From contig CAXXTN010000003.1 of the NCBI GenBank assembly GCA_963666175.2, positions 33,740 to 97,739 of the forward strand: a stretch of 64,000 nt of DNA, in the 5' to 3' direction. This DNA comes from Candidatus Poribacteria bacterium. Its GTDB lineage: Bacteria; Poribacteria; WGA-4E; WGA-3G. Below, in pieces: positions 421 to 55,635 of this stretch (positions are counted from its first letter, which is position 1; each line of letters starts with the position of its first letter). The position numbers were made by a program, and so were the translations under genes. The notes beneath the pieces are model-generated. The model worked only from the letters and a program-made list of their open reading frames with translations. It did not search any database and was not told the DNA's origin.

Positions 421-520
421 TTTTGATGACAGTACAGAAACTGTGGTGAAGCATAGAATTATATCTACACTTTCTATCAAAGGTAGGCGAGGTTAGGAAA
501 CCGAACCAACAATGGAAGAG

Positions 521-1299
521 CCACATCATCGTGGTTAGAAACCCCTCCAACAATGGAAGAGCCACATCATCGTGGTTAGAAACCCCTCCAACAATGGAAG
601 AGCCACATCATCGTGGTTAGAAACCACTCCAACAATAGAAGAGCCACATCATCGTGGTTAGAAACCACTCCAACAATAGAAGAGCCACATCATCGTGGTT
701 AGAAACCACTCCAACAATGGAAGAGCCACATCATCGTGGTTAGAAACCCCTCCAACAATGGAAGAGCCACATCATCGTGGTTAGAAACCACTCCAACAAT
801 AGAAGAGCCACATCATCGTGGTTAGAAACCCCTCCAACAATAGAAGAGCCACATCATCGTGGTTAGAAACCACTCCAACAATGGAAGAGCCACATCATCG
901 TGGTTAGAAACCCCTCCAACAATGGAAGAGCCACATCATCGTGGTTAGAAACCCCTCCAACAATGGAAGAGCCACATCATCGTGGTTAGAAACCCCTCCA
1001 ACAATGGAAGAGCCACATCATCGTGGTTAGAAACCCCTCCAACAATGGAAGAGCCACATCATCGTGGTTAGAAACCCCTCCAACAATGGAAGAGCCACAT
1101 CATCGTGGTTAGAAACCCCTCCAACAATGGAAGAGCCACATCATCGTGGTTAGAAACCACTCCAACAATAGAAGAGCCACATCATCGTGGTTAGAAACCC
1201 CTCCAACAATGGAAGAGCCACATCATCGTGGTTAGAAACCACTCCAACAATAGAAGAGCCACATCATCGTGGTTAGAAACCACTCCAACAATGGAAGAG
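521..1299. repeat. Tandem array of 19 head-to-tail copies of a 41-bp unit, CCACATCATCGTGGTTAGAAACC[A/C]CTCCAACAAT[G/A]GAAGAG
   Basis: I counted the units one by one. They abut with no spacers. Only two sites vary, and all four allele combinations occur (CC/G x10, AC/A x5, AC/G x3, CC/A x1). 41 is not a multiple of 3, and no ORF of 60 aa or more crosses the array on either strand. Confidence 0.95.
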
Positions 1300-6907: not shown

Positions 6908-6965
6908 GAGGTTTCCTAACCTCGTCTATGCAGAGTGTTCAAGTAATGTCAAAATTTACTATAAA
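6908..6965 (+). repeat. Partial copy (right half) of the 105-bp REP-hairpin element, upstream of the ECF sigma-clamp gene
   Basis: ggaggtttcctaacctcgtctatgcagagtgttcaagtaatgtcaaaatttactataa aligns with 8929-8985 and 22839-22895. Confidence 0.8.
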
Positions 6966-7112
6966 TTCTGACCTTTCCTGTGTAAAATGTAAAAATGATT
7001 CTGAAATCTATCATAGTATCATCTCCAAAGTCATTCAAAATTGTGCAACAATTTCTGTAATACTCGCGTCTTTATATACGAATGAATACAGACACGTTTT
7101 ATGGAGTTATTT

Positions 7113-8852
7113 ATGAAAAACGGTGACGTTAAGTTGATCCAACGTATTCTTGCGGGAGATCAAACTGCTTTTGAGAGTTTGCTTACTAAATATCGGAAGC
7201 AGGTTCACGCGCATGCATGGCGGAGGACAGGTGATTTTCATATCGCTGAAGACATTACACAGGAGACCTTCCTGCAAGTTTATCAGAAACTGGAAACTCT
7301 TGAAGAACCAACTCAGTTTTCAAGATGGCTCCATGCAATTGTGAATCGTCTCTGTATTGCGTGGTATCGGAAAAACCCTATACATACTGAATCCCTTGAA
7401 GAAACCGATTGCTCAGAGATCGAGATTGATGCTTATTCTCGCTATGTTGCTGAAGAACAGGTGAAAACAACTGCTATAGTGCAAAGCGACGTTGTGCATG
7501 AACTTCTCACTAAGTTAAAGGAAAGCGACAGGCAAGTTGTCACGCTACACTACTTTAAAGAAATGACATATTCTGAGATTGGTTCGTATTTGGGTGTATC
7601 AGAAAGTACGATTAAAAGTCGGTTGCACCGTGCTCGCAAACGTTTGCAAAAGTATGAGTTCATGATTCAAGAAGCGTTAGACATAACAATGGAAGAGGGA
7701 CATCACTCCCACAGAGAAATAAATGGAGGTATTGGAATGAATTTAACATTTGAAAGAGACGACCTTTTATATTCGCTACAAGTGCTGCAGGATATTGGAA
7801 ATGGAGAGGATACTTCTCCGATTCTCTCAAATATATTTATCCACGCAGCTGGTGATACTATTGAGTGTATGGCAACAGACACTGAAATCGGTATCAGAAT
7901 GAAGGTAGAAGGGACAGTTAGAGAAGAAGGGAGAATTGTTGTTTCTGCCCAGAAGTTAGCAGACATTGTTAAAGGGTGGCAATCAGAGAAACCGATCAAC
8001 TTAGCTACGACGGCATCAGGTCGCATTGAAATCAGTGGTGGAAATGGCGTTCACAAAAACGTCAAGATCTCCGATGAAGAGTTTCCCAACCTCCCTGCTG
8101 TTGATGATAAAGCGATTGCGATTGATGGGGATAGCCTACGTTCTGTGCTGGACAAAACTAAATATGCAGTTCCCACAGATGAGGAAAAGATCAAGCGTTT
8201 ACCAAAAGGTCTATACTTTAATCTATTTAATGACAGAACAGAAGTTGTCGCGACCGACGGATTACAACTTGCCCTTGCGCACTGTGAACCGTTCAATTTA
8301 TCTGATGATAGTGATGGATTTATCGTTCCACTCAAAGCTGTCCAAGAAATCGAACGCACATTTGGGAATTCACCTGAGATAAAGATTGCGCGCATTGAAA
8401 ATCAGATTCTCTTTGCGGATGAACATGTTACGTTGACGACGAAATTGATAAATGCTGACTACCCACAGTATCAACAAATCTTACGAAGTTCTTATGATGG
8501 GAGAGTCGTAGTAAAGAAAGAGCCTTTTTTGAACGTCGTCCGTGAAGTTGCCTTGCTTTCAAATCCGAAATTTCCGTCGGTGTTTTTAGATATAGATGAA
8601 CAGAAGATACGGATTTCGCCTAAACTCTCCGCACCGGATGAGGAATGTGAGACTGTCGCGGTGGATTCAGGTGTTGGGAGTGTCAATATCCGTCTGATTT
8701 CGAGAATGCTGACAGAGGCGTTAGAGCACATTGAAACGGAGACTTTTTCTCTGGAGTTCTCAAGTACAGTGCTTCCTGTAGTTATTAAACCGATTGATGA
8801 GGATGAAGAAGCACAAATCTGCATAATGGCACCGATGCGTTTGGATGCTTAA
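7113..8852 (+). CDS. ECF (group 4) sigma-70 factor fused in frame to a full-length DnaN-like beta sliding clamp
   Basis: GGAG sits 6 nt before the ATG at 7113 (MKNGD, parallel to MKNDD of the paralogue at 22942). Sigma region 2 is DITQETFLQVY and region 4 is SYLGVSESTIKSRLHRARKRL. From residue ~209 the clamp motifs are MNLTFERDDLL, ATDTEIG, EEFPNLP, VATDGLQLA, KLINADYPQY and IMAPMRL. I checked the reading frame by hand across 7620-7745. Confidence 0.85.
   Translation: MKNGDVKLIQRILAGDQTAFESLLTKYRKQVHAHAWRRTGDFHIAEDITQETFLQVYQKLETLEEPTQFSRWLHAIVNRLCIAWYRKNPIHTESLEETDCSEIEIDAYSRYVAEEQVKTTAIVQSDVVHELLTKLKESDRQVVTLHYFKEMTYSEIGSYLGVSESTIKSRLHRARKRLQKYEFMIQEALDITMEEGHHSHREINGGIGMNLTFERDDLLYSLQVLQDIGNGEDTSPILSNIFIHAAGDTIECMATDTEIGIRMKVEGTVREEGRIVVSAQKLADIVKGWQSEKPINLATTASGRIEISGGNGVHKNVKISDEEFPNLPAVDDKAIAIDGDSLRSVLDKTKYAVPTDEEKIKRLPKGLYFNLFNDRTEVVATDGLQLALAHCEPFNLSDDSDGFIVPLKAVQEIERTFGNSPEIKIARIENQILFADEHVTLTTKLINADYPQYQQILRSSYDGRVVVKKEPFLNVVREVALLSNPKFPSVFLDIDEQKIRISPKLSAPDEECETVAVDSGVGSVNIRLISRMLTEALEHIETETFSLEFSSTVLPVVIKPIDEDEEAQICIMAPMRLDA
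7725..7739 (+). promoter_or_regulatory. Internal Shine-Dalgarno (GGAGG) plus ATG exactly at the first residue of the clamp domain
   Basis: GGAGG at 7725-7729, a 7-nt spacer, then ATG at 7737-7739 in the same frame as the upstream sigma domain. Confidence 0.5.
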
Positions 8853-8880: not shown

Positions 8881-8985
8881 TTATAGTGAATTATAAATAT
8901 AAGTTGACACTTTCGTCCCACGGTAGGCGAGGTTTCCTAACCTCGCCGATGCAGAGTGTTCAAGTAATTTCAAAATCTACTATAA
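8881..8985 (+). repeat. 105-bp element TTATAGTG...[GGTAGG-CGAGGTT-TCCT-AACCTCG-CC]...CTACTATAA (REP-like hairpin with a 5' GTAG, short TIRs)
   Basis: Near-identical to 22791..22895. The 9-bp-stem hairpin GGCGAGGTT/AACCTCGCC is preceded by GGTAG. Confidence 0.85.
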
Positions 8986-9328: not shown

Positions 9329-10336
9329 TCAATGCCTTATAATCTCCGGCAGGACGATCATTGATGACATTGCTAAACACACTACCTTGGGAGGCTCAAA
9401 AAACCTATAAATACAGCGTATCGTTTCATAGACACACGCCTCTATGACGCGTCTATAATACCAATGGTCGTCTTCTGCCTCTGGACAATTTTTAGCAAGT
9501 TCTGTTCGGTAGGTGTTTTCCATCAGTTGCATTACATCGTCAGGAAGTCGACAGACCTCTGCCCACATATCAAGATGCACACGAATCTGAAACCCGCCAA
9601 TAAGCACATGTTGAAAGTGTCCAAATTCATAGTCAAATACATACGTCTTTGATTTGGATGTAGAGTGGTAGATATTTACGGGATATAGGTCTCCGTGGAT
9701 TAACACGTGAAAACGATTAGTAGCATCCAGGAATTCAGTCAATGCTTTCAATTCGGTAAGAGATTCTTGGTTGGGTTGGACATCTGCGGCACTACATATC
9801 TCCTCCCATTTCTGTGCATAAATACTATCCAAGTCTTCACGACTGTTGTCAAGCGTAACAATTGAGTCCCGTATTTTGAGGAACTTTTCCACCTCACCGA
9901 TTGAGTGTGCATGTATCTGTCCAAGACATTTAGCACCTTCAATCAAGACGTGTTTTGCAGTTTCGCTATCGTCATTGATCAGTATTGCTCTAAGATTCTG
10001 TCCATCTCCCATATCTTCCATCACGAGAAGTGGAACGTTATTTTTCCCCGAATACCCACCACCATAAAGACAGGGAGTGACACTATTTGTCCCCATCTGA
10101 TCGTTTAGGAATTGCAAACACGTCCATTCAACACGAATCCTTCGTGCGCGTTTACATTTAACGAAAACAGTATCAGGAATTCCATCCGGTCCCGATAGGA
10201 TTTTGTAACGATATAGGCTTTGCGGATGTATATTTTCAGGTTTATCAATGCAAATTTCACCACCGAATTTCTGTGCTAATATCCCTTGTACTGCTGAGTA
10301 TAGATTTTTGAATGAGACGTTTTGTTGTGTTGGCAT
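9329..10336 (-). CDS. Aminoglycoside/choline-kinase-type phosphotransferase (APH family)
   Basis: HGDLYPVNI (H.D....N catalytic loop) followed by VFDYEF. Kinase-like N-lobe region LLVMEDMGDG. Confidence 0.7.
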   Translation of the reverse strand: MPTQQNVSFKNLYSAVQGILAQKFGGEICIDKPENIHPQSLYRYKILSGPDGIPDTVFVKCKRARRIRVEWTCLQFLNDQMGTNSVTPCLYGGGYSGKNNVPLLVMEDMGDGQNLRAILINDDSETAKHVLIEGAKCLGQIHAHSIGEVEKFLKIRDSIVTLDNSREDLDSIYAQKWEEICSAADVQPNQESLTELKALTEFLDATNRFHVLIHGDLYPVNIYHSTSKSKTYVFDYEFGHFQHVLIGGFQIRVHLDMWAEVCRLPDDVMQLMENTYRTELAKNCPEAEDDHWYYRRVIEACVYETIRCIYRFFEPPKVVCLAMSSMIVLPEIIRH

Positions 10337-11200: not shown

Positions 11201-11529
11201 ATTTGTGAAAAAATACAAGAAAAACTGAAAACTATAGTAAGACTTACAATTAATGAAACATATTGTCCCAATTACAAATTTATAGAATGTAAGAGGCGCA
11301 ATGAATTGCGCGACTACAAACGCGTTAATCTAAATGTAAAATGTATTGTTAATTTCAGATTTTACTATAAATAACCCTGAGTGACAATTGAATGTCTCTG
11401 ATTTTGTTAATCTTTTCTTGTTTATTCAGAATTATTCTGCTAATATGTCTTGTTAGGAATTTCAACAATTATCGAGAATAACGTGAGTTTGATAATACTA
11501 TATCCATAAATATTAACGTTGGAGGAAAA

Positions 11530-12330
11530 ATGAAATTCAGAAGTCAGACTACGATGAAAATTGTCCTATTGAGTTCTATCGTATTTACACTGTTGATTCC
11601 TTTTATCAGTTTTGCGGCAACGATTGATGTGGGTACCGTTGAGGTGGCTTATCTATTAGACGAAAATGATGGCAACGTCGCCAAAGATATTTCTGGGAAT
11701 GAGCGACATGGTGAAATCACTGGTGCAAAACGTGTGGAAGGGGTGTTCGGAAAAGCATTAGAATACGATGGCACTGATGATAATCTCATTGTTACAGGAT
11801 ATAACGGCATAGGCGGTACAGACCCAAGAACAACTGTATTCTGGTTTAAATCTGATGTAGTTCGCGACCATTCTTGGGTTAAGTGGGGAGTGAATGTCTC
11901 TACTCAAAAATACTACATCCGATCGCATGTCCGGGGTAATGAATGCAATTTGCGTGTTGAAGTCAACGGTGGTAACAATTTCGGAACAGATAATGTCTGT
12001 GATGGTGAGTGGCATCATTGTGCCGTTGTTTTCCCTAAAGGATCGGATGCAGTGGAAGATCATGATCTCTATGTAGATGGTAAACTTCAGGCAAAAGAGG
12101 GAACCAAATTTGCAATGAACACCAACATTGACACCCAAGTAGTCAATATCGGGGCAAAGTTGGCTAACCACACTTTTATGTCCGGTTCAATGGATGAAGT
12201 TGCTATCTTTAATGTGGAGTTGAGTTTAAAGCAGATTAATTCGATTCGTAATGTCGGATTAAAAAGTGCCCTTGGCATTGACCCACAAGACAAATTAACC
12301 ACCAGATGGGGTATGATTAAGAAATACTAA
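11530..12330 (+). CDS. Secreted LamG / concanavalin-A-like lectin-fold protein
   Basis: Signal peptide MKFRSQTTMKIVLLSSIVFTLLIPFISFA. Motifs DGTDDNLIV, WFKSD, GEWHHCAVVF and MDEVAIF are typical of Laminin_G_3. Paralogue of 15599..16399 with the same 266-aa length. Confidence 0.75.
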   Translation: MKFRSQTTMKIVLLSSIVFTLLIPFISFAATIDVGTVEVAYLLDENDGNVAKDISGNERHGEITGAKRVEGVFGKALEYDGTDDNLIVTGYNGIGGTDPRTTVFWFKSDVVRDHSWVKWGVNVSTQKYYIRSHVRGNECNLRVEVNGGNNFGTDNVCDGEWHHCAVVFPKGSDAVEDHDLYVDGKLQAKEGTKFAMNTNIDTQVVNIGAKLANHTFMSGSMDEVAIFNVELSLKQINSIRNVGLKSALGIDPQDKLTTRWGMIKKY

Positions 12331-13160
12331 TCCCACAAATCAAGACCTAAAAGTTTTCGTCCTAAAGGTGTCAATTCTGGTGATCCGTAGTTTTTCGCTT
12401 CCCACCCGCGTGGGTCACCAGGATAGGGACCGTGCCCTAATGCTCTGCGTTCTCTCCATAAGGTTATTCTTTCTTGACGGCGTTCTTCATTCATAGGATT
12501 CGGTGCGCGGTAATAGTTCATATATTGTGCCAGTCTGGGTTTATCTGAAGTGTTACGGCCGTTCCCGTGTGGAAGTGCTATATGCCAAATTAACAATGAG
12601 CCGGCCTTCGCTGGTACTTGGACAAATTTTTCTCTATATATCTCTGGTGTCAATTCAGGCACCCACGGATTCTCTTCATCTATTAGCGACTTATGTGCTC
12701 CGGGCCAACAAACAAAAGACCCTTGATTTTCTGCGGTATCTCTTAGAAACAAAACTCCTTGCGTGCTGAAGTGCACCGGTAGTTTTGATGTGTCCGCATC
12801 CCAGTGATACATCCCTTTGTGATCCCATTCAGGATAGTCAGGATGTTTCGGAGGTTTCATGTTGACTCTATCTATGTGCACCCAAATACGTTCAGTGCCA
12901 TATACTTCGGTATAGATTTGATAAATCGGTGGATGTTGGTATACGTTCCACATCGCCTGATGAAAGTACATTTCAATCATACCTGCACCGGGTTTGTGAG
13001 GCGCGTGATACCAGTCATTCGGGTCGGATGAATCCATCTCCAAGAATGCAAAAATTCCATCTACGACTGCTTCACACAACTCAATCGGAACAGCATTTTC
13101 AATTACCATATATCCGTATTCATCAAAATGTTCACGGTGTGCGTCTGTTAATATTGCCAT
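12327..13160 (-). CDS. Phytanoyl-CoA dioxygenase (PhyH) family Fe(II)/2-oxoglutarate oxygenase
   Basis: N-terminus LTDAHREHFDEYGYMVIENAV and WH.D / H.ALPHGNG-type metal ligands. Convergent 4-nt overlap with 11530..12330. Confidence 0.75.
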   Translation of the reverse strand: MAILTDAHREHFDEYGYMVIENAVPIELCEAVVDGIFAFLEMDSSDPNDWYHAPHKPGAGMIEMYFHQAMWNVYQHPPIYQIYTEVYGTERIWVHIDRVNMKPPKHPDYPEWDHKGMYHWDADTSKLPVHFSTQGVLFLRDTAENQGSFVCWPGAHKSLIDEENPWVPELTPEIYREKFVQVPAKAGSLLIWHIALPHGNGRNTSDKPRLAQYMNYYRAPNPMNEERRQERITLWRERRALGHGPYPGDPRGWEAKNYGSPELTPLGRKLLGLDLWD

Positions 13161-13344
13161 TCACTTCTCTTTGATTAATGTTCCTTCTATTTAATTTAAT
13201 ACTCATACGTCCATTTTCTGTTGTATATCCATGACCAGAACAGTAGATGGAATTGTTGGCGAAAGTAGTGGAATTGGTATTACAACACACACGAAAATCA
13301 TGACAACATCCCAATATTAACACATCCAAGGAATAAGATCAATC

Positions 13345-13660
13345 ATAGATATTTAGCTTCAGGATTATTTAGTTTTCGGTAATTCTGATACATTTGTTCA
13401 CAAATCAATATAAAGCAATGCATAGTAGTAGGCACACTCCGTGTGCCGCAACCCAATCTGTGTGGACGGCACGCGGATGAAGATAAGGAAATAAAATTGG
13501 GTGTTTTGACACCAAAGTCCAGCGCGCTTACAAAGCGCCAAATCAAGAAATCAACGGTATGAACGCCTTTTGGCGTTCCCCGGGTATGAATGCCTTTTGG
13601 CATTCCCCGCCTACGGGTTTTGAGAAGAGCGTTTACAAAGCACCAAATCAAATGAGTATG
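13345..13660. repeat. Hairpin-module mosaic
   Basis: Contains GAACGCC-TTTT-GGCGTTC and GAATGCC-TTTT-GGCATTC side by side, GCGCTTACAAAGCGC, and gcatagtagtaggcacactc...ggacggcacgcgga (also at 33340-33470). Confidence 0.8.
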
Positions 13661-15598: not shown

Positions 15599-16399
15599 CT
15601 AATACTTTTTAATTCTTGCCCAGTTTGTTGCTAATTTGCCTTTCGGGTCAACACTGACAGAACCATGCAAGCCATTTTCTTTTACCTCATTTACTTGATC
15701 TGCATCCAAGCCAGTGCTTAGAATTGCGAGTTCATCCATAATACCGTGTAAAAAATGGTGTCCAGTGAGACGGGCACCAATGTTCACAACTTGTTCTTGA
15801 CCACCCGTGTCCATCACATGATCATTACCAATCTTTTCTTGAAGATTACCATCAACATATAGGTGGTGGTCTTGGACAGAATCTGAACCGTTGGGAAAAA
15901 CCAATGCACAATGATGCCATTCGCCGTCACAGACATTATCGTTCCCGTAATTTTGTCCACCGTTGACCTCAATTCTCAAGAAGCATTCTTCACCTGTTGG
16001 GTGTGCTCGGATGTAATATTTTGCCCCAGCAGTATTCGGTCCCCATTTGACCCATGAATGTTGTCTTGTGGAGTCTGATTTAAACCAGAAAAGGATAGTC
16101 CGTGGGTCTGTACCCCCTACCCCGGCATATCCATCAATAATCAGGTTATCATCTTCGCCATCATACTGTAGTCCGGTTCCATAAACAGCATCTACCCATT
16201 GTGCACCTATGATTGTTCCATCGCGTCCGTTTGGAGATGAATCATAAGCGACATCACCTTCTCCTTCGTCAAATAGGTAGATAACTTCAACATTTGCATC
16301 TTCAATGACACGGGCATGGGTGATAGCCGTGACAGACAACACAAATATGAGGACCCCAAAACATAGTAGTAAAGTATTACTCTGATTTCTAACTTTCAT
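15599..16399 (-). CDS. Secreted LamG / concanavalin-A-like lectin-fold protein (paralogue of 11530..12330)
   Basis: Start moved to the ATG at 16399 (GGAGG 8 nt upstream), giving signal peptide MKVRNQSNTLLLCFGVLIFVLSVTAITHA. Shares DGEDDNLII, WFKSD, GEWHHCALVF and MDELAIL with its paralogue. Confidence 0.75.
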   Translation of the reverse strand: MKVRNQSNTLLLCFGVLIFVLSVTAITHARVIEDANVEVIYLFDEGEGDVAYDSSPNGRDGTIIGAQWVDAVYGTGLQYDGEDDNLIIDGYAGVGGTDPRTILFWFKSDSTRQHSWVKWGPNTAGAKYYIRAHPTGEECFLRIEVNGGQNYGNDNVCDGEWHHCALVFPNGSDSVQDHHLYVDGNLQEKIGNDHVMDTGGQEQVVNIGARLTGHHFLHGIMDELAILSTGLDADQVNEVKENGLHGSVSVDPKGKLATNWARIKKY

Positions 16400-16697
16400 C
16401 TTCGTTTCCTCCATAATGGAAGTTTGGTTCAGGAATATAGTTTTTGTGCCTTTTGCATTGGCACAATTCTTTTCAATACATTCACCATTAAACAATAATC
16501 GGTGTTACATAATTTATTTAACGACAGTTTATCTCATGTATTTTCAACCTATCTATAACATTAGTATATTAACAATATTTGTAAAATTATACAACAAGAA
16601 AATGGATTTCAACGGTAATTTGGTTTTATAGTGAAATGTAAATACGTGCACACTCCTCGGTAGATGCGGTTTCCTAACCGAATCTATGAGACTGAAC

Positions 16698-22790: not shown

Positions 22791-22895
22791 TTATAGTGAA
22801 TAACAAATATAAGTTGACACTTTCGTTCCACGGTAGGCGAGGTTTCCTAACCTCGCCGATGCAGAGTGTTCAGGTAATTTCAAAATCTACTATAT
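22791..22895 (+). repeat. 105-bp REP-hairpin element, copy immediately upstream of the second ECF sigma gene
   Basis: Near-identical to 8881..8985. It ends 46 nt before the ATG at 22942. Confidence 0.85.
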
Positions 22896-22941: not shown

Positions 22942-25920
22942 ATGAAAAATGACGATGTTGAACTCATCCGACGAATTCTTAATGATGATCAAACAGCATT
23001 CGCAGAACTTGTAGAAAAGCATCAAAAATCGGTTCACGCACTTGCTTGGCGAAAATTAGGGGATTTTCACACTGCTGAAGATATTACCCAAGATGTTTTT
23101 CTTACCATATATCAAAGCCTTCATACCCTGAAAGATCCAAAAATGTTTTCTGGGTGGATGTATGTAATCACAACACGTCTTTGTGCCACATGGATCCGCA
23201 AGAATCGGATAAAAACGCAACCTTTAGAGGAGACTGAGACAACGATGCTACAGAAAGACGCTTATTCACAACATGTCGCAGAAGAGCGCGCAAAAACTGC
23301 GAATCAGACACAACGCGATATTGTGAAAAAACTGCTTGCGAAGTTGAAAGAGAGTGAACGCACAGTAATGACGCTCCATTATCTTGGTGAAATGACGGTT
23401 GAGGAGATTAGTCGATTTTTAGGTGTGTCTGCGGGCACAATCAAAAGTCGATTGCAACGTGCGCGGAACCGTCTACAAAAGGAGGAGACGATGATTAGAG
23501 AAGCACTTGACCATTTTCAGATTTCACCGAACCTGACAGGTAATATCATGGAGAAGGTATCGAGGCTAAGACCGGGAGCACCCACTGGGAGCAAACCTAT
23601 AATGCCGTGGACAATTGCTGTATCAAGTATAGTAATGGTTATTTTGATGTTCGGCATTGGCAACCAATACTTAGCACGTTTCCAAAAACCTTATAGTTTA
23701 GATGCTCAGGCTGAAATGACAGTAGAAATTGTTGACGCGTCTATTGTTCAGAATGTAGATGCAAAGCAGGATGAATTAAATCAACCTGGTAATCCAAATG
23801 TCCTTAGTGTAAGCGATAGTCTCGGTAAGAAATCCGAGGAAGTTCTATTGGCTGCTGCAGAAGCGGAAGGAGAAGACAATTCTGTTTCTAAGCAAGTGTG
23901 GATACCGTCTAAACCGATGTTTGGTAGTTCCGCACATAGTTTTCTTGCATCGCCTGATGGTGATCTGTATACGGTTATTCCGTCTTCTGGGAAGATCTAT
24001 AAATTACCTGCCAACGGGAAAGGGTGGCAAGACTTCTCTAACATTGAATCTTTGTATCAAATCCCATCGGGACAACAACAACCGCTTGGGACGTGGAACA
24101 GGACTTTGTATTTTTTCCCCTCTTCTGAACTTTACGAGTCTACAGATGATGGAAAGACATGGAATTTACTTTACTCTTGGAAGGAAAAGCATCAGGATCC
24201 TATTGGGTTGATTCTAAAGGACCACGCATTCTATATTGCTTTTGACAGTGGTGTTTATAGTTCCGAAGATTGGGGTAAGACTTGGCAAAGTATTAGTAAT
24301 GGATTCTCCGGAATTAATTCTTTAGTTGAAGTTAAAAACACACTTTTTGCCGGAACAGTAGACGGATTCTATCGTTTGGACGATAACGGGTGGAAACGCA
24401 TGAAATTACCAGAATCAATCAAACAGGTGTATTCAGTTACAACCAATAAAGAGTATGTTTATGTATTGGCAGAACTTAGTGAGGGTTGGGATGTTCCTGC
24501 GAAAGTAGCGCGAGGACATGAACGAGGTTGGGGTGTATTTCGCGGAAGTAAACTCGGAGATATGTGGCATGACATAACCCCTATAAACGCTTGGCCAGTA
24601 AATGGTTTTATACCTGATGCAAAACTAATTGCTGCCGGAGAGACACTCTTATTGATGGAGAGAGGCATGGTACGATCTCTCGATGGTGGATACACATGGT
24701 TATCTCCACAATTAGCAGATTCCTCACCTCTTATGGATAGTATAAGTCCTGCTGTCGTAGTGAATTCAGATACTATTTATGTCGGTAGTAACGATGGTCT
24801 TTATCGTTCAACTGATAGCGGTAAATCGTGGAACATGGTGAACATCACTCCAGATAAGGATAAGGGATTTCTATATGATCTCGTCGTGGATAGGGGTAAC
24901 GCTAATGAACAAAACGAAGTGACAACTCTGTATGGAAGACTCGGAGCAGATGTGATAAAAACTGCGGACAATGGTAAGTCTTGGATGAACGTTCCTGTTG
25001 AAATACTCATGTCGAAACCGCATAGAGAATCATCCCCATATATTAATCATATAGTCAAATCTGATGGCGTAATTTATGCAAGTGTAAATTATCACGGCGA
25101 AAGCGGGGATAGAGTCAGTCCATATCACCTATCTGCAAAGGGTAGAACGTTCGTGCGGATTCAGGATATTCCACTTTTTGACTCAGACCACTTTGAACCA
25201 CTGGATGTTGCACTGTTTAGGAAACAACCTGTTGAACATTTACAAAATAACTTTTCAGGGGCAGACCAATTCTTTAAGCAATTGGTTAAAGTGGATAATC
25301 GGAGACAAAGGAGCCTAATGCGGGAGGGGTTAAGTGGTGCGTTTGCTGTCAGTGGTGGAACATTTTATCTGGAATACAATTTTAAACTCTTCCGATGGGA
25401 ACATGGCGATTCAGAATGGTACGATACCGAACAAGAAGAAACTGTTGAATTGTCATTGGATATAGCAAAGAGAGATCTTAAACTTGCAGCATCAGGAAAT
25501 ACTCTTTATGTCGGGAAACGTGATGGTCACCTTGTCGCATCGTTTGATAAGGGAACAAATTGGCTTGATTTCACACCGGTTCTGCCGTTTCCTGTTAACG
25601 TTTTCAATGAGATTGTGTTTGTGGGTTCCACCGTGTATGTGGCAACAGATGCAGGTGTAACTTCATCAGATGGCGGGAAAAAGTGGCTTGCTGTCACCGA
25701 TGCAGATGGTACAAATCTCATCATGGAGTACATGGCTGTTGATGGAGCGACTCTCTACGGAATCACCAAAACCACAGGTGTTTATCGCTTGGAAAGCGGT
25801 AGTTGGAAACAGATTGTCTCGGAGATACCTAATCACATTACCTCTCTTGCAATTGAGGGTAACACCCTTTACGTTGGCACGGCAAACAACGGTATGCTTC
25901 ATTTTAACCTTGAAAAATAA
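22942..25920 (+). CDS. ECF sigma factor fused to a transmembrane helix and an extracytoplasmic BNR/Asp-box (sortilin/Ycf48-like) beta-propeller region
   Basis: Sigma regions 2 and 4 (DITQDVFLTIY; RFLGVSAGTIKSRLQRARNRL). TM segment PWTIAVSSIVMVILMFGIG. Seven Asp-box motifs: STDDGKTW, SEDWGKTW, SLDGGYTW, STDSGKSW, TADNGKSW, SFDKGTNW and SSDGGKKW. Confidence 0.8.
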   Translation: MKNDDVELIRRILNDDQTAFAELVEKHQKSVHALAWRKLGDFHTAEDITQDVFLTIYQSLHTLKDPKMFSGWMYVITTRLCATWIRKNRIKTQPLEETETTMLQKDAYSQHVAEERAKTANQTQRDIVKKLLAKLKESERTVMTLHYLGEMTVEEISRFLGVSAGTIKSRLQRARNRLQKEETMIREALDHFQISPNLTGNIMEKVSRLRPGAPTGSKPIMPWTIAVSSIVMVILMFGIGNQYLARFQKPYSLDAQAEMTVEIVDASIVQNVDAKQDELNQPGNPNVLSVSDSLGKKSEEVLLAAAEAEGEDNSVSKQVWIPSKPMFGSSAHSFLASPDGDLYTVIPSSGKIYKLPANGKGWQDFSNIESLYQIPSGQQQPLGTWNRTLYFFPSSELYESTDDGKTWNLLYSWKEKHQDPIGLILKDHAFYIAFDSGVYSSEDWGKTWQSISNGFSGINSLVEVKNTLFAGTVDGFYRLDDNGWKRMKLPESIKQVYSVTTNKEYVYVLAELSEGWDVPAKVARGHERGWGVFRGSKLGDMWHDITPINAWPVNGFIPDAKLIAAGETLLLMERGMVRSLDGGYTWLSPQLADSSPLMDSISPAVVVNSDTIYVGSNDGLYRSTDSGKSWNMVNITPDKDKGFLYDLVVDRGNANEQNEVTTLYGRLGADVIKTADNGKSWMNVPVEILMSKPHRESSPYINHIVKSDGVIYASVNYHGESGDRVSPYHLSAKGRTFVRIQDIPLFDSDHFEPLDVALFRKQPVEHLQNNFSGADQFFKQLVKVDNRRQRSLMREGLSGAFAVSGGTFYLEYNFKLFRWEHGDSEWYDTEQEETVELSLDIAKRDLKLAASGNTLYVGKRDGHLVASFDKGTNWLDFTPVLPFPVNVFNEIVFVGSTVYVATDAGVTSSDGGKKWLAVTDADGTNLIMEYMAVDGATLYGITKTTGVYRLESGSWKQIVSEIPNHITSLAIEGNTLYVGTANNGMLHFNLEK

Positions 25921-33726: not shown

Positions 33727-34512
33727 ATGCCTGCTCAAAAAACACAAGCGATCGTAATTCGCGCCTTTACTTTACAAGAAACGAATAAGATCATCACTTT
33801 CTATACACCCGATTTTGGGAAAGTTAAAGTTGTGGCATACGGTGTAAAGAGCCCAAAAAGCAAGCTGAGTGGTAGTTTAGAACTACTCAACCACGGCATG
33901 CTTCTTTTTAACTATCGCGAAAACAAGGACTTACAGAGTCTTACAGGATTTGATCTGATTGAAGGTTTTGATGGTATTCGCGCAGATTTTACACGGATAA
34001 CTTATGGTTGCTATTTAGCGGAATTAGTTGATGCTATTGCATCAGAAGGTGATGCTAATCCCGAAGTTTTCGAACTCTTACGAAATACCTACTCTTTCTT
34101 AACAGATACCAAAGATGTGCCGTTACTGGTTCGTGTCTTTGAAATAAAGTTCCTTGATCTTGCCGGTTACGCACCCCAACTTTCTCAGTGTGCGAATTGT
34201 GGTTCAATCGTGACACCATCCCCTCTTCAAAATTCACAAAACCCCATGTTAGTTATGCTTTTCAGCGTTCGCCTCGGTGGACTGCTCTGTGGTATGTGTC
34301 AACACAGAGATACCTCAGCATTTTCAATTGCACCTGGAAGTTGCGAATTGCTAAAGAACTTACGGAAATCAGAGTTCAGTAAATTGAATAGAATTCGCGC
34401 ATCTGAACGTAATCATCGTGAACTGAAACTCATACTTGGTAGTTTTATCCAATACCATACGGAACGTAGTCTAAAAAGTCTGAAATTCATTGAAAGTGTA
34501 TTAGAAGCGTAA
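33727..34512 (+). CDS. recO: DNA repair protein RecO
   Basis: KTQAIVIRAFTLQETNKIITFYTPDFGKVKVVAYG OB-fold N-terminus, and a C-x2-C ... C-x2-C zinc module (CANCGS...CGMCQ). Confidence 0.85.
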   Translation: MPAQKTQAIVIRAFTLQETNKIITFYTPDFGKVKVVAYGVKSPKSKLSGSLELLNHGMLLFNYRENKDLQSLTGFDLIEGFDGIRADFTRITYGCYLAELVDAIASEGDANPEVFELLRNTYSFLTDTKDVPLLVRVFEIKFLDLAGYAPQLSQCANCGSIVTPSPLQNSQNPMLVMLFSVRLGGLLCGMCQHRDTSAFSIAPGSCELLKNLRKSEFSKLNRIRASERNHRELKLILGSFIQYHTERSLKSLKFIESVLEA

Positions 34513-52584: not shown

Positions 52585-55500
52585 ATGACCTTACAAGAAA
52601 TAATATTAGCATTAGAGAAATTTTGGGCAGAACAAGGATGTATAATTCAACAACCATGCGATATAGAAGTCGGCGCAGGGACATTTAACCCCGCCACATT
52701 TTTACGATGCCTCGGACCAGAACCGTGGAATGTAGCGTATGTAGAACCTGTTAGGCGACCTACCGATGGCAGATATGCTGAAAACCCCTTTCGCCTCGGT
52801 GCATACTACCAATATCAAGTCATACTCAAACCAGCACCCGAAAATGTGCTACCACTCTATCTTGAAAGTCTATATCATCTCGGCATATCACCCCGCAAAA
52901 ACGACATCCGCTTTGTAGAGGACGACTGGGAATCTCCGACACTCGGTGCATCTGGACTCGGTTGGGAAGTGTGGTGGAACGGTGCAGAAGTTACACAGTT
53001 CACCTATTTCCAACAGATGGGTAGCATAGACCTTGCCCCGATTTGTGCTGAGATAACATACGGACTTGAACGGATCGCACTTTATCTACAGGATGTTGAT
53101 ACCTTTTTTGATATTCGCTGGAATGAACACCTGAACTATGGTGATGTCCACCATCAAAGTGAAGTGGAATACTCAACCTACAACTTTGAACACGCCAACG
53201 TTGACATGCTTTTTGATCAGTTCAGCACCTATGAAAAAGAAACGCACGCGTGTTTAGATGCGGGTTTAGTTCTGCCCGCAACCGACCATGTTCTGAAATG
53301 TTCCCATACCTTCAACATGCTGGATGCTCGCGGTGTTATCAGCGTCACGGAGAGGGTGAGTTATATTGAACGTGTGCGTAGGTTGGCACAACGTATCGCA
53401 CGCGCTTACGTCACACAGCGTGAAGAGATGGGACACCCACTGATGGGACGATTTGACGACACAGAGGATGCCTCTACCACGGTAGGTGCGGTTTCTAACC
53501 GCACTGAAGCAACTTCAGGTGAGGTATCTAACCTATCGGAAACCGCAGACCTTCTCTTTGAAATCGGCACGGAGGAGATACCTGCGAGTTACGTGCCACC
53601 TGTTCTTGACCAACTCAGCAAAATAGCGGTCGATTCCCTCGAAGAACATAGAATTCCGTTTGGCGATATTCAGACCTTCGGCACACCGAGACGTATAACA
53701 CTGACTATCAAAGACATCAAAACGCTGCAGGAAAGTGTGGAAACAGAAATCGTTGGACCACCTAAAAGCATTGCTTACGATGAAAATGGAGAACCAACGA
53801 AGGCAGCCATCGGTTTTGCAAAATCACAAGGTGTTGAACTCTCAGACATTCGCATTGTTGAAACTGAACGTGGCGAATACATTGCTGTCTCCAAACTTGA
53901 AGAAGGATTGTCAACACAGGAACTATTGGAAACACTCCTACCCGAATGGGTTGAAGCACTTCGCTTTCCCAAAACGATGCGGTGGGAAACAGAATCATCA
54001 GAACCACACGCCTTTGCTCGTTTTGCCCGTCCTATCCGTTGGTTAGTCGCGCTCCTCGGAGATGTACTCGTCAACTGTACTTATGGGGCAGCACATGCAA
54101 GTAATATTACTTATGGACACCGATCTTTACATCCCGACTCAATTACTTTGTCAACCGCAGACGTGGACATCTATATCCAGAAATTGCAGGAAGTTGATGT
54201 TATCGCATGTCAAAAGCAACGACGTGACACCATAGAAAAACAGGTGCGGAAAGTTTTTGAAGCCGAAGGATGTTTGCCTGCGATAGATGAAGAATTGTTG
54301 GATACGGTAAACTATCTCGTAGAAAATCCTCAGCCTATTATTGGAGATTTCAGCGAGTCTCATTTGGAATTACCACCTGAAGTGCTGATTACCGCTATGA
54401 AAAAACATCAACGTTATTTTCCGATGTGGAAAAGTGAAACTGAACTTGCACCGAAATTCATCACTATATCCAACGGAACAGATGGTAATATTGATGGTGT
54501 TCGGCACGGTAATGAACGTGTGCTACATGCACGACTCAACGATGCAGAATTCTTTTATAATGCTGATCAGAAAACAACACTCGCTGATAAAGTTGAACGT
54601 TTAGGTGCGGTTGTCTTTCACGCTAAACTCGGTTCGCTTTTGGACAAGGCAAATCGTATGAAGGCATTAGTGAAGTTTATTGCCACAGAATTGAAACTAT
54701 CGGAAACTACCACCCATCACGCAGAACGTGCAGCGTTACTCTGTAAAGCAGATTTGACAACGCAGATGGTGATAGAATTCCCATCGCTACAGGGGATTAC
54801 GGGACGGTACTACGCTCAAAACTCTGGTGAAACTACAGAGGTCACTGAGGCTATCGCTGAGCATTACCAACCATTGGGTGCGGATACACCGCTGCCCGAA
54901 ACCGAGGTCGGGGCAATACTCGCTATCGCTGACAAAATTGACACCATAGTAGGATACTTCGGCATAGAGGAACGGCCGACTGGTTCGCAAGACCCGTATT
55001 CTTTACGACGGCATGCCCTCGGCACAATACGTATTCTACAAGATCGGCAGCTTCCCCTCTCATTGGACGCAATAGTTGAAAAAGCGATCTCACTATATGA
55101 TGTGGATTTAGTTGACGACACGAAAACAAGTATTCTGAATTTCATCAAAGAACGTCTACGCATTATCTTACAAACACAGAAATATACCCCTGACCTTGCT
55201 GATGCAGTATTAGCAGTCGGTGATGTTAATATTACAGATATCCTCAAACGTGCAGGTGCACTTGCTGAATTTCGCTTGACATCCAATTTTGAAGACATAT
55301 ATAATGCACTCAATCGTGTGCTTAGGATTTTGCCTGAAAATGCACCGGAAACTGTGGATACTGGGTTGCTAAAAGACAATGCTGAAAAAGAGTTAAACGC
55401 TCATATCACCGAAGCAGAACCTAATTTTGAGAAAAGTATCCAGTTGAGAGAATATTCAGAACTCTTGAATCAGTTAGCAGCGTTGCAACTTACAATTGAC

Positions 55501-55635
55501 AAGTTTTTTGACGATGTTCTTGTTATGGCAGAAGATGCTGACCTTCGTACAAATAGATTAGCATTGCTAAATCGTATAGCGAAACATATCTATGCCGTAG
55601 CCGACCTGACGAAGTTGGTAATTGCCGGGGAGTAG
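52585..55635 (+). CDS. glyQS: Fused glycine--tRNA ligase, alpha (GlyQ) plus beta (GlyS) in one polypeptide
   Basis: N-terminus [24 protein letters not shown]...GAGTFNP (GlyQ). After about 300 aa and a ~30-aa linker, [12 protein letters not shown] begins the GlyS part. 1016 aa. Confidence 0.9.
53481..53539 (+). repeat. REP-like hairpin (plus a degenerate second copy) embedded in frame in the GlyQ-GlyS linker
   Basis: GGTAGGTGCGGTT-TCT-AACCGCAC (53481-53504) matches the intergenic GGTAGGTGCGGTT-TCCT-AACC family. A degenerate copy CAGGTGAGGTATCTAACCTATCGG is at 53516-53539. Translated, they give the internal peptide repeat [10 protein letters not shown] / [11 protein letters not shown]. Confidence 0.75.

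Follow-up and report, generated by a model that had tools for sequence, protein, structure and literature searches.

Late transcription of phage T4 combines the sliding clamp gp45 with the sigma-like protein gp55 and the co-activator gp33. The gp55 protein has no sigma4, and the late promoters have no -35 element. For decades clamp-coupled transcription was represented by phage T4 alone, until in 2026 the bacterial beta clamp was added by way of phage Mu (PMC12867686). MuC of phage Mu is a separate activator that carries clamp-binding motifs, works with sigma70 and the housekeeping clamp, and needs a nick (PMC12867686). On the side of the sigma factors, the closest described proteins are ECFs with fused C-terminal extensions, among them ECF41 and ECF56 (both SnoaL-like), ECF44 CorE and ECF243 IutY (PMC7826278; PMC8999054). 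The C-terminal extensions of ECFs have been reviewed as regulatory (PMC8999054).

In the window, i.e., the whole stretch of 64,000 nucleotides that was analysed, the gene at 7113..8852 (+) encodes a complete ECF sigma factor (sigma2 and sigma4), a 22-aa linker and a three-domain DnaN-type clamp. Poribacteria, the source of this DNA, are an uncultured phylum best known as sponge symbionts. The sigma-clamp protein may connect the switching of genes with DNA replication machinery, or it may use a clamp-shaped domain as the built-in regulator of its sigma factor.

Reading frame and domains of the sigma-clamp gene

The ORF listing of the window contains a single stop-free ORF of 583 aa at 7101..8852 (+). 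The first-pass annotation had proposed one unbroken frame from 7113 to 8852 for both proteins, and this frame was recovered. The ATG at 7101 lacks conservation, and MKNDD opens the homologous proteins; 6 nt ahead of the ATG at 7113 lies a GGAG that is kept in seven of seven aligned loci. This ATG, also the earlier choice, is probably the true start codon and yields a fusion of 579 aa. The motifs quoted in the first-pass annotation are all present in the translation, namely DITQETFLQVY, SYLGVSESTIKSRLHRARKRL, MIQEALD and ITMEEGHHSHREINGGIG as well as the clamp motifs MNLTFERDDLL, ATDTEIG, EEFPNLP, VATDGLQLA, KLINADYPQY and IMAPMRL. Public annotations name the fusion proteins 'DNA polymerase III subunit beta'; the name hides the sigma domain and could thus mislead genome-based inference.

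Table 1 Features of the sigma-clamp locus and its paralogue in the window. Domain residue numbers, here and in the text, follow the 583-aa numbering; all Pfam matches exceed the gathering cut-offs.
Feature	Position	Strand	Evidence
ECF-type promoter TGCAAC (-35) N17 CGTC (-10), then TTATATA	7044..7070	+	conserved in the window and L001-L006
SD GGAG (7103-7106) and ATG (7113-7115)	7103..7115	+	GGAG invariant in a 7-locus alignment
Sigma region 2 (core binding, -10 recognition)	7179..7376	+	Pfam PF04542 Sigma70_r2, 52.1 bits, residues 27-92
Sigma region 4 (helix-turn-helix, -35 recognition)	7491..7652	+	PF08281, 65.8 bits; PF04545, 55.4 bits
Inter-domain linker EALDITMEEGHHSHREINGGIG, 22 aa	7671..7736	+	first half EALDIT.E..H conserved
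Internal SD GGAGG (7725-7729) and ATG (7737-7739)	7725..7739	+	probable separate start of a free 371-aa clamp paralogue
Clamp domain I	7737..8096	+	Pfam PF00712, 63.5 bits
Clamp domain II	8121..8468	+	Pfam PF02767, 71.8 bits; holds the residues conserved only in the fused family
Clamp domain III, cleft motif IMAPMRL and stop codon	8490..8852	+	Pfam PF02768, 41.4 bits
Paralogous ECF sigma with large C-terminal region	22942..25920	+	Pfam BNR/Sortilin/beta-propeller-type matches

Regions 2 and 4 were the only sigma regions in the Pfam scan of the fusion protein, which gave no region 3 match. Region 2 has a mean majority-residue frequency of 0.84 in 51 homologues, and region 4 spans residues 131-184 with the Sigma70_r4_2 match at 131-182. 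The ECF model TIGR02937 (NCBIfam) was matched with 109.6 bits against a cut-off of 42.9 and over its positions 2-164 of 165; the alignment to the PDB structure 5wuq of SigW covers residues 11-184. Judged by these matches, the sigma half is a bona fide ECF (group 4) sigma factor of the sigma-70 family. The length of the linker is constant in almost all of the 51 sequences, with two exceptions among those listed. L193, I195 and M213 are invariant in this region, while E191, A192, D194, T196, H201, G209 and G212 are each conserved in at least 90 % of the sequences; the conserved first half of the linker is common to sigma-coiled-coil paralogues. QEALDI was considered as an intramolecular ligand resembling a clamp-binding motif and was rejected, since a large clade has P in place of the Q.

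The Pfam matches of the clamp cover residues 213-332 (N-terminal), 341-456 (central) and 464-573 (C-terminal) of the fusion protein; domain III is the least conserved, with a majority-residue frequency of 0.70 in 51 homologues. Fused clamps match the dnaN model TIGR00663 over all 367 positions with 185-187 bits (cut-off 137.65). An AF2 model of the clamp reached a pLDDT of 89.5 and a pTM of 0.86, with a Foldseek TM of 0.88 to 7ybd, and in this model the fused clamp keeps the clamp fold. The full-length model of the fusion had a pLDDT of 52 and a pTM of 0.30 from a shallow MSA of 51 sequences and gave no information on a docking of sigma to the clamp.

Distribution, expression signals and sister fusions

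A search of related genomes for the fusion found at least 120 protein clusters (90 % identity) with the sigma and DNA_pol3_beta domain sets, the most distant being 59 % identical to the window protein. Their length is 529-595 aa throughout, and many lie on contigs of 3-6.7 Mb. According to the NCBI names the carriers are Candidatus Poribacteria, including complete chromosomes of 5-6.6 Mb. The clusters come from NCBI, ENA, JGI and Logan assemblies, among them closed long-read chromosomes, and with so many independent clusters an assembly or sequencing artefact, i.e., a lost stop or an indel joining two genes, is practically out of the question. A phage origin was rejected as well: no sigma-clamp was present on IMG/VR contigs, and the PHROGs matches were generic. 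Fused clamps form a single clade (NJ bootstrap 100/100), and by the evidence of the sequences the fusion arose once, within Candidatus Poribacteria, and purifying selection has maintained both of its halves.

Three contigs of 6,597,616, 6,023,443 and 5,746,478 bp each carry the fused and a stand-alone dnaN, thus the fused clamp is a paralogue and not the housekeeping clamp, as the first-pass annotation had supposed. Its argument had been the motif ATDGLQLA in place of ATDGHRLA. The motif reads as it was given, but both positions (E. coli H175/R176) vary in stand-alone poribacterial clamps, so this weak argument is replaced by the co-occurrence of fused and stand-alone genes. In Pfam scans of 35 window ORFs dnaA, recF and gyrB were missing, in line with the earlier statement that none of them is nearby. 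A recO gene is located at 33727..34512, 25 kb from the sigma-clamp gene. In a close genome pair the fused clamps are 90.9 % identical, the stand-alone clamps 98.9 %, hence the fused form changes more quickly in evolution than its housekeeping counterpart.

At the junction of both halves, the GGAGG is placed 7 nt ahead of the clamp ATG, as had been noted before. GGAGG and ATG are kept at the nucleotide level in 11 of 11 sigma-clamp loci; the first Gly codon at the junction is GGA in each of them, a codon that accounts for 33 % of the Gly codons in these genes, and the clamp Met is invariant in 51 of 51 proteins. Similar junctions with SD and ATG occur in sigma-coiled-coil (3/3) and in sigma-FtsZ N-domain fusions (2/2). 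From this conservation a free clamp paralogue is probably also made, and the dual product proposed in the first-pass annotation, fusion and free clamp, appears plausible. With the conserved SD and ATG at the fusion junctions, these genes illustrate neatly how nested products are probably encoded by a single gene.

The promoter TGCAAC-N17-CGTC upstream of the gene is conserved in seven of seven loci amid diverging flanking DNA. In a scan of 564 kb of poribacterial DNA, the motif family had 28 matches where 0.4 would be expected, and almost every one of them precedes an ECF paralogue gene. The conserved ECF-type promoter suggests that the sigma-clamp gene is autoregulated by its own sigma domain. 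Since the paralogous sigma factors share the motif, cross-recognition is not separable from autoregulation and a regulon specific for sigma-clamp is not assignable. Apart from the presumed autoregulatory promoter, the 564 kb scan revealed only one ABC-exporter operon: in one lineage (L014) an ABC exporter gene and, behind it, the sigma-clamp gene are under the control of the promoter. Three further matches were not upstream of an ECF paralogue gene. One of them, antisense within a Laminin_G_3 gene (window 16202), was rejected as a regulon promoter and is probably a chance match; the other two lie at locus ends, the downstream gene being beyond the sequence. The genes neighbouring sigma-clamp differ between lineages. 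PhyH was dismissed as a conserved partner gene, because it adjoins only in L003 and L004 and PhyH paralogues are abundant across these genomes. Neither the window nor the loci L003-L006 had an anti-sigma-like gene beside the sigma-clamp gene; a missing anti-sigma gene is typical for ECFs with fused C-terminal extensions.

The sigma half of the window protein has a relative in the ORF at 22942. The first-pass annotation had put the identity of the two at about half, which proved too low (60 % over 190 aa), while the end of the similarity at EALD was placed correctly. Four metagenome loci (L019, L022, L024 and L025) are of the same type as this ORF, with a hydrophobic stretch past the sigma part. 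As a paralogue with a different C-terminal partner, the ORF shows the sigma module to be a reusable unit. The sigma-clamp gene belongs to a phylum-specific radiation of ECF modules with FtsZ N-domains, coiled-coil/wHTH, or TM and sensor domains as partners, the TM types being sigma-TM-propeller/Redoxin/lectin fusions. In a family with such varied partners, which the first-pass annotation had not recognised, the clamp is better read as a C-terminal module for regulation or sensing than as a dedicated coupler of replication and transcription, and this context matches the known principle of regulatory C-terminal extensions in ECFs (PMC8999054). A DnaN-FtsZ fusion, driven by sigma54 and with a bEBP gene adjacent, was also observed in Poribacteria.

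Candidate roles of the clamp module

Overall entropy is alike in fused and stand-alone clamps (0.88 vs 0.86). Of 116 sites conserved to at least 95 % in stand-alone poribacterial clamps, 28 are lost in the fused family. They cluster at the interface (E. coli 101-110, 269-273 and 297-302) and further take in R24, K73 and, within the cleft, N320 and R365, while invariant sites specific for the fused family occur in domain II (E. coli positions 127, 166, 186, 191, 218 and 226). At the interface residues E. coli F106, L108, I272, L273 and E298, stand-alone poribacterial clamps have Y/I/L/L/E in 90-100 %, whereas in the fused family these residues are a plurality only (43-49 %) and the window protein has H/N/L/L/A. 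Each fused lineage retains one side of the dimer interface in the canonical form, with the other side altered. This pattern could also stem from a remodelled yet functional homodimer, and weak-interface clamps such as T4 gp45 still function on DNA. In the DNA channel, positions 24 and 73 are R (98 %) and K (97 %) in stand-alone poribacterial clamps, but E and Q in the window protein; the family has mostly Q or E at position 24 and mostly E, Q or G at position 73. Summed over the six channel helices, the window protein carries a net charge of -1; the mean of the fused family is +2.9, against +5.1 for stand-alone clamps and +6 for E. coli. K198 and R205 persist, and R96 and K80 often remain. In the cleft, T172, L177, P242, P346, P363, M364 and L366 are for the most part preserved; constraint is relaxed at R365, N320 and M362, and the window protein has A362 and I320. 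From this pattern we infer that constraint has been lost where the ring closes and at the channel residues R24 and K73. Together with the channel charge of the window protein, it speaks against the initial idea of an ordinary clamp ring that is loaded where DNA is replicated or repaired.

The reading that we prefer, with about an even chance of being correct, takes the clamp paralogue to act in cis on the sigma factor, as a module that regulates or targets it. The sigma domain would transcribe its own gene, and the clamp paralogue would fill the C-terminal slot that is held by TM/sensor or other partners in the sister paralogues. By clamp-type contacts it would control when or where the sigma factor engages RNA polymerase; candidate contact surfaces are the peptide-binding cleft, which is retained in large part, that half of the dimer interface which has stayed canonical, and the newly constrained surface of domain II. 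The fused clamp would not be a canonical, stably closed ring that encircles DNA. A free clamp paralogue, made from the same mRNA by the internal GGAGG and ATG, may form pairs with the fusion protein or the housekeeping clamp and thereby set the amount of sigma factor that is held or released.

A DNA-loaded tether as in T4 or Mu ranks below the cis-acting module: it is possible, though rather unlikely and less supported. The fused clamp, by itself or paired with a free paralogue or a housekeeping clamp in a mixed dimer, would be loaded on DNA at nicks or primer-template junctions, slide along it and deliver the attached sigma factor to RNA polymerase and the cognate promoters, which would turn on the regulon in step with replication or repair. 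The completeness of the clamp, its fold, most of the peptide- and loader-binding cleft, and K198 and R205 would suit this role, and a co-made free clamp would permit rings bearing a single sigma factor. The point of attachment would be suitable too, as the 22-aa linker to the clamp N-terminus leaves from the C-terminus of sigma4, and sigma4 sits on the beta-flap, where the promoter complex has its upstream edge. In T4, gp33 tethers gp45 at this place. Against a mobile tether stand the replacement of R24 and K73, invariant in stand-alone clamps, by E and Q in the window protein and by Q/E in most of the family, a channel-helix charge of -1 where true clamps have +5 to +6, and an interface hydrophobic core (Y106, I108, L272, L273) that is relaxed on one side in every lineage. 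Sister paralogues with TM-sensor or FtsZ half-domains indicate that the sigma module needs no clamp, and clamp-loader and replication genes were absent nearby in the window scans. Also, the T4 analogy drawn in the first-pass annotation is weakened: sigma4 is intact, and the conserved upstream promoter combines a -35 with a -10 element, unlike the T4 late promoters. In a wider version, which we regard as unlikely, cellular covalent clamp-coupled transcription would proceed from a mixed ring of the fusion with the co-translated free paralogue or the housekeeping clamp, which follows replication or repair forks and fires the ECF regulon in time with DNA synthesis. This would be one part of a broader wiring that ties transcription modules firmly to paralogues of two cell-cycle machines (sigma-DnaN, sigma-FtsZ N-domain, sigma54-driven DnaN-FtsZ).

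The fusion may also have little function of its own, if a stop was lost between an ancestral sigma gene and a downstream clamp-paralogue gene. The working products would then be the sigma factor, perhaps released by proteolysis, and the free clamp from the internal start, with the covalent form as a tolerated by-product. Junctions with SD and ATG in all 11 loci and in the sister fusions, together with the invariant Met1 of the clamp, do resemble former gene starts. Neutral fusions are expected to break up across such divergence; here, however, the frame is continuous and the 22-aa linker constant in at least 120 clusters down to 59 % identity, no split version was found among these clusters, and the linker sequence itself is conserved (EALDIT.E..H). 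In an exhaustive search, the fusion family was the sole clamp group with this N-terminal sigma extension, close short matches being fragments. These findings make a mere by-product improbable.

Least probable of the functional explanations, quite doubtful and argued by analogy, is an integrated decoy or guard, in which the diverged clamp, like the FtsZ half-domain of sister proteins, would mimic essential host proteins that are frequent targets of phage inhibitors; binding of a phage inhibitor would release or activate the attached sigma factor for a defence or stress regulon. DnaN and FtsZ, both partners of the sigma module, are classic phage targets. The faster evolution of the fused clamp, the loss of housekeeping constraints while fold and cleft stay, and the ABC exporters and other accessory genes around sigma-clamp in some lineages are consistent with a decoy. 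Yet PADLOC gave no defence-family match for sigma-clamp, only a generic HTH model (E = 2e-5), and had no matches for the DnaN-FtsZ and sigma-FtsZ N-domain proteins; the neighbourhoods are neither defence islands nor conserved, and IMG/VR contigs gave no phage-derived evidence.

Comparison with described systems

As core parts of two information-processing machines, sigma factors and sliding clamps are joined here in a conserved cellular covalent link that is apparently undescribed. No description of the sigma-clamp architecture was found in the full texts searched, where the coverage of subscription journals is thin. The protein is a natural and genetically simple test case for clamp-coupled transcription. 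In the conservative reading it is a new, unusually large type of built-in regulator for the ECF family, and it shows that an essential replication protein was duplicated and repurposed as a signalling domain. Together with the sigma-FtsZ and DnaN-FtsZ fusions it suggests an unusual coupling of gene regulation to components of replication and division in Poribacteria.

The fused clamp shares with housekeeping DnaN (TIGR00663) the three-domain fold, a cleft motif of the MPMRL type and a match above the equivalog cut-off. It differs in not being the sole copy, in lacking dnaA, recF and gyrB as neighbours, in a lower HMM score (187 bits vs 233-280 for stand-alone poribacterial clamps) and in its faster evolution; nor does it conserve those residues of the interface and channel which never vary in stand-alone poribacterial clamps. 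With T4 late transcription it has in common a sigma-family protein coupled to a sliding-clamp fold at the upstream flap side of RNA polymerase. The T4 coupling is non-covalent and made by C-terminal clamp-binding peptides, while sigma-clamp is covalent and joined at the N-terminus of the clamp, with sigma4 and a two-element promoter. Moreover, gp45 is a trimeric PCNA-type ring loaded by gp44/62, whereas the fused clamp has relaxed constraints at the ring interface and channel. Like Mu MuC (PMC12867686), it would bring a bacterial DnaN-type clamp to transcription initiation by the host RNA polymerase, but with a dedicated clamp paralogue fused to an alternative sigma factor in a cellular genome.

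The likeness to ECFs with C-terminal extensions comprises a minimal sigma2-sigma4 core with an in-frame C-terminal domain, an AAC/CGT promoter upstream and the lack of a separate anti-sigma gene; in both, the extension is expected to control the sigma factor in cis. The extension of sigma-clamp measures 393 aa past sigma4, far above the 50 aa taken as threshold, and is conserved throughout the at least 120 clusters. The words 'clamp', 'DnaN' and 'polymerase III' do not occur in PMC7826278, PMC7671368 and PMC8999054, i.e., a DnaN extension is absent from the ECF classification, the evolution paper and the review, and sigma-clamp is accordingly classed as a new group or variant. Its partner domain, a beta-clamp paralogue of full length (371 aa), the SD and ATG at the junction and the restriction of the family to Poribacteria set it apart from the extension types described so far (SnoaL-like, TPR, Cys-rich, fused anti-sigma/TM), none of which a DnaN paralogue fits.

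Sigma factor and clamp in one reading frame

An ECF sigma factor, a linker and a DnaN-type clamp are encoded in one frame of the window; this product and its homologues are called sigma-clamp here, and the features are collected in the table. Two NCBIfam models exceeded their cut-offs on the window ORF, TIGR02937 (ECF; 109.6 bits, cut-off 42.9) and TIGR00663 (dnaN equivalog; 185 bits, cut-off 137.65, whole model covered). The first-pass annotation had proposed an uninterrupted fusion at 7113-8852, and this observation was borne out in every point: all peptide motifs quoted there are present in the translation, a GGAGG at 7725-7729 lies 7 nt ahead of the ATG at 7737, the sigma half resembles the N-terminus of the second ECF sigma paralogue in the window (ORF 22942) with 60 % identity over 190 aa, ending at EALD, and neither dnaA, recF nor gyrB was found among the 35 window ORFs scanned with Pfam. 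The proposed translation start at 7113 is probably correct, since the GGAG upstream is invariant, the alternative ATG at 7101 lacks conservation and the homologues begin with MKNDD. Elsewhere, the window carries recO (33727..34512) and a gene for a 1016-aa fusion protein of the alpha and beta subunits of glycyl-tRNA synthetase (52585..55635).

A search of 5.8 billion proteins revealed at least 120 clusters with the sigma and clamp architecture at the 90 % identity level. These proteins of 529-595 aa shared from 99 % down to 59 % identity with the window protein and originated from NCBI, ENA, JGI and Logan assemblies, many of them from contigs of 3-6.7 Mb. Two closed chromosomes labelled Candidatus Poribacteria encode the fusion (96 % and 92 % identity), while it was not found on IMG/VR viral contigs. 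When the clamp part was used for an exhaustive HMMER scan against 1.84 billion representatives, matches with an N-terminal extension of sigma size occurred only in the sigma-clamp family. Thus, the fusion is real and cellular, and it appears confined to Poribacteria; an assembly artefact is refuted by the recurrence of the architecture in so many clusters and has practically no probability left. At NCBI the proteins are named 'DNA polymerase III subunit beta [Candidatus Poribacteria bacterium]', a name that does not reflect the sigma domain.

Features of the sigma-clamp gene and of related poribacterial fusions (positions refer to the window unless a numbered poribacterial locus, L, is named)
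Feature	Position	Strand	Remarks
Sigma-clamp ORF	7101..8852	+	single uninterrupted frame, 583 aa
Sigma70_r2	residues 27-92		Pfam, above gathering cut-off
Sigma70_r4_2	residues 131-182		Pfam, above gathering cut-off
Three DnaN domains	residues 213-332, 341-456, 464-573		Pfam, each above gathering cut-off
Upstream GGAG	7103-7106	+	invariant in 7 aligned loci
ECF-type promoter TGCAAC-N17-CGTC, then TTATATA	7044-7070	+	kept in all 7 loci examined first; surrounding DNA diverges
Intergenic repeat copies	6908..6924, 8929..8945, 22839..22855 (+); 488..504 (-)	+/-	4 copies vs 0.01 expected
Sigma + FtsZ N-terminal GTPase half only	L005 20486..21715; L006 16418..17644	+	408-409 aa
Sigma + coiled-coil/weak wHTH (HTH_20)	L016 4644..5885; L017 10001..11176; L018 10001..11188		partner about 200 aa
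Sigma + TM helix + BNR/Sortilin propeller	22942..25920; L019, L022, L024, L025, L027		about 1000 aa
Sigma + TM + Redoxin/AhpC	L023, L030		753 aa in L023
Sigma + TM + C-type lectin	L029		689 aa
Direct DnaN-FtsZ fusion	L090 10001..12121; L091 10001..12082		687-710 aa; protein family P0127, P0425-P0436

Divergence of the fused clamp from stand-alone clamps

The fused clamp is a paralogue and not the housekeeping clamp. Its closest stand-alone relative, the database protein P0122 (373 aa), shares 50 % identity, and members of the P0122 cluster occur on the 6,597,616-bp and 6,023,443-bp contigs, from which the fused proteins P0038 and P0047 also come. On one chromosome of 5,746,478 bp, the stand-alone P0387 (367 aa) and the fused P0061 are encoded 294 kb apart. 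TIGR00663 scored stand-alone poribacterial clamps with 233-280 bits versus 187 bits for the fused clamp, and in a closely related genome pair the stand-alone clamps were 98.9 % identical, the fused clamps 90.9 %. In an NJ tree, the deep branching order of which is not resolved, the sigma-fused clamps formed one clade (bootstrap 100/100) nested within the poribacterial clamps, which points to a single event of duplication plus fusion inside the phylum Poribacteria. Stand-alone dnaN genes can be multiple: three lie in tandem in the MAG GCA_022825825.1 (10001..11122, 11252..12358 and 12389..13495 of locus L009; 373, 368 and 368 aa), and several other contigs carry two or three different ones. Stand-alone dnaN in the loci L007 and L008 is likewise not located beside dnaA.

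An alignment was built from 51 fused clamp domains, 119 stand-alone clamps of Poribacteria and the E. coli beta sequence, the last being identical to 1MMI chain A. Both families are equally deep and overall equally constrained, with a mean entropy of 0.88 for fused versus 0.86 for stand-alone clamps. Among 116 sites conserved to at least 95 % in stand-alone clamps, the fused family keeps 66 and loses 28. Losses cluster on both sides of the interface that closes the ring (E. coli positions 101, 104, 106, 108, 110; 269, 270, 273; 297-302; 81-83), at the DNA contacts R24 (to Q/E) and K73 (to E/Q/G) and, in the cleft, at N320 and R365; the majority of the cleft residues are kept (T172, L177, P242, P346, P363, M364, L366). 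Invariant residues specific to the fused family are mostly in domain II (E. coli 127, 166, 186, 191, 218, 226). Every fused lineage has one canonical and one altered side of the interface: the window clade is polar at 106/108 with L-L at 272/273, the other fused clades have Y-I at 106/108 and A-F, S-L or P-L at 272/273. The net charge of the six channel-lining helices is -1 in the window protein, +2.9 on average in the fused family, +5.1 in stand-alone clamps and +6 in E. coli, with helix boundaries taken from a confident model and with a Mann-Whitney P that ignores phylogenetic non-independence. An AF2 model of the clamp alone (pLDDT 89.5, pTM 0.86) matched a solved beta clamp with a TM of 0.88 in Foldseek, and the clamp fold is intact according to this model. 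In our reading the fused clamp would be a neofunctionalised paralogue, which probably still makes protein contacts of the clamp type and in which selection for a ring that closes stably around DNA appears relaxed.

Promoters, probable internal start and sister fusions

Across 564 kb of poribacterial sequence the promoter motif TGCA[AC]C-N13-16-[CT]GCGTC had 28 matches versus 0.4 expected, nearly always immediately upstream of ECF paralogue genes, and such a placement has the sequence layout of classic autoregulatory ECF genes. The motif is common to sigma-clamp, sigma-coiled-coil and several sigma-TM paralogues and therefore cannot tell sigma-clamp from the paralogous sigma factors. A near-copy in the window, TGCACC-N13-TCGCGTC at 16202..16227 (+), lies within and antisense to a Laminin_G_3 gene (15599..16495), is not followed by TTATATA and probably matches by chance. 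In L005 (about 9884..10000), L006, L012, L017 and L018 a distance of 115-147 nt separates the promoter from the start codon downstream. An inverted repeat, GATAGGGTG...CACCTATC, is conserved within this long leader and may fold into a regulatory RNA.

A conserved anti-sigma gene was not found beside the sigma-clamp gene in the window and the compared loci. In L014 (7977..11719) an ECF-type promoter is followed by an ABC exporter gene (590 aa) and the sigma-clamp gene, and the two genes have the appearance of an operon. The sigma-clamp genes of L005 and L006 are embedded among genes for ABC2, MacB-FtsX, ABC exporters and DUF5916, and a TnpB/IS605 OrfB gene (11882..13012) adjoins the one in L005. 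Two copies of an intergenic repeat of 110-130 bp flank the sigma-clamp gene in the window and one is immediately upstream of ORF 22942; the repeat has the core GAGGTTTCCTAACCTCG, a 9-bp stem GGCGAGGTT/AACCTCGCC and TTGACA and TACTATA boxes, occurs also upstream of the sigma-clamp gene in L002 and resembles REP or MITE elements.

Sigma half, linker and clamp half are all constrained: among 51 aligned homologues the majority-residue frequency was 0.84 for sigma2, 0.81 for sigma4, 0.77 for the linker and 0.79, 0.80 and 0.70 for clamp domains I, II and III. The linker length of 22 aa was fixed in nearly all sequences, its first half EALDIT.E..H was conserved and the initial Met of the clamp was invariant. 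The GGAGG followed 7 nt on by an ATG was conserved in 11 of 11 sigma-clamp loci. All 11 use GGA for the first glycine of the junction, a codon that accounts for 33 % of the glycine codons in these genes, and synonymous positions nearby vary. The junctions of sigma-coiled-coil genes read AAAGGAGA plus ATG (3/3), those of sigma-FtsZ N-domain genes a Shine-Dalgarno-like AGAGGG(G/A)GA plus ATG (2/2). From these junctions we infer that, besides the fusion, a free clamp paralogue is probably translated from the same mRNA.

Sigma-clamp belongs to a radiation of poribacterial ECF modules with various fused partners, the sigma parts being 50-71 % identical. The sigma parts of L016-L018 share 63-71 % identity with the window sigma half, and their linker, DITIE.EH.SQ.QLKGEI[SN]M, is of the same type. 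The FtsZ N-domain partner covers about positions 9-204 of the 353 in TIGR00065 (225-249 bits); in L005 and L006 its gene is located amid ABC transporter genes, 5-9 kb away from sigma-clamp. A hydrophobic stretch separates sigma module and sensor-type domain in the loci examined, and in L019 such genes form a tandem of three (3394.., 6706.., 9925..), each with its own ECF-type promoter. The direct DnaN-FtsZ fusions consist of a full clamp and a full FtsZ globular domain with a junction devoid of Met. Their clamps form a related clade, and the closest relatives of these fusions belong to Poribacteria. A perfect sigma54 promoter (TGGCAC-N5-TTGC; L090 9890, L091 9861) precedes each gene by 100-140 nt, and the gene directly 3' in both loci encodes a sigma54 activator (bEBP) without a receiver.

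Proposed role and comparison with known systems

In sister ECF paralogues the position of the clamp is taken exactly by sensor-type extensions, and the C-terminal extensions of characterised ECFs are regulatory (PMC8999054). We give about even chances, more than to any rival, to an autoregulated ECF sigma factor that would transcribe its own gene from the upstream ECF-type promoter, with the fused clamp paralogue regulating or targeting the attached sigma in cis and the co-translated free paralogue modulating sigma-clamp. All statements on function derive from sequence, and the AF2 support concerns the model of the clamp only.

With a changed ring interface, changed channel residues, and sigma4 and a -35 element present, the protein is unlikely to be a DNA-loaded tether as in T4 or Mu, the main rival explanation, which would agree with the retained clamp fold, the mostly retained peptide cleft, the attachment of the clamp on the flap side, at the sigma4 C-terminus, and recent work showing that a bacterial clamp is capable of serving transcription (PMC12867686). 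Sigma-clamp has a low but real chance, put slightly below that of the tether, of being a cellular clamp-coupled transcription system. A tolerated operon fusion is improbable in view of the conservation of the reading frame and of the length and sequence of the linker. An integrated decoy for phage inhibitors, which received no support from PADLOC, is the least probable of these explanations.

The terms 'clamp', 'DnaN' and 'polymerase III' do not occur in the ECF classification (PMC7826278), the evolution paper (PMC7671368) and the review (PMC8999054), and no description of a sigma-DnaN fusion was found in the full-text literature, a coverage that includes few subscription journals. Sigma-clamp was assigned neither to T4-type late transcription nor to housekeeping DnaN, since the features that define them are lacking. 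The general layout is shared with the known ECF sigma factors that have a fused C-terminal domain; a complete DnaN paralogue as partner, however, is absent from these three papers and distinguishes sigma-clamp from the ECFs with C-terminal extensions that they cover.
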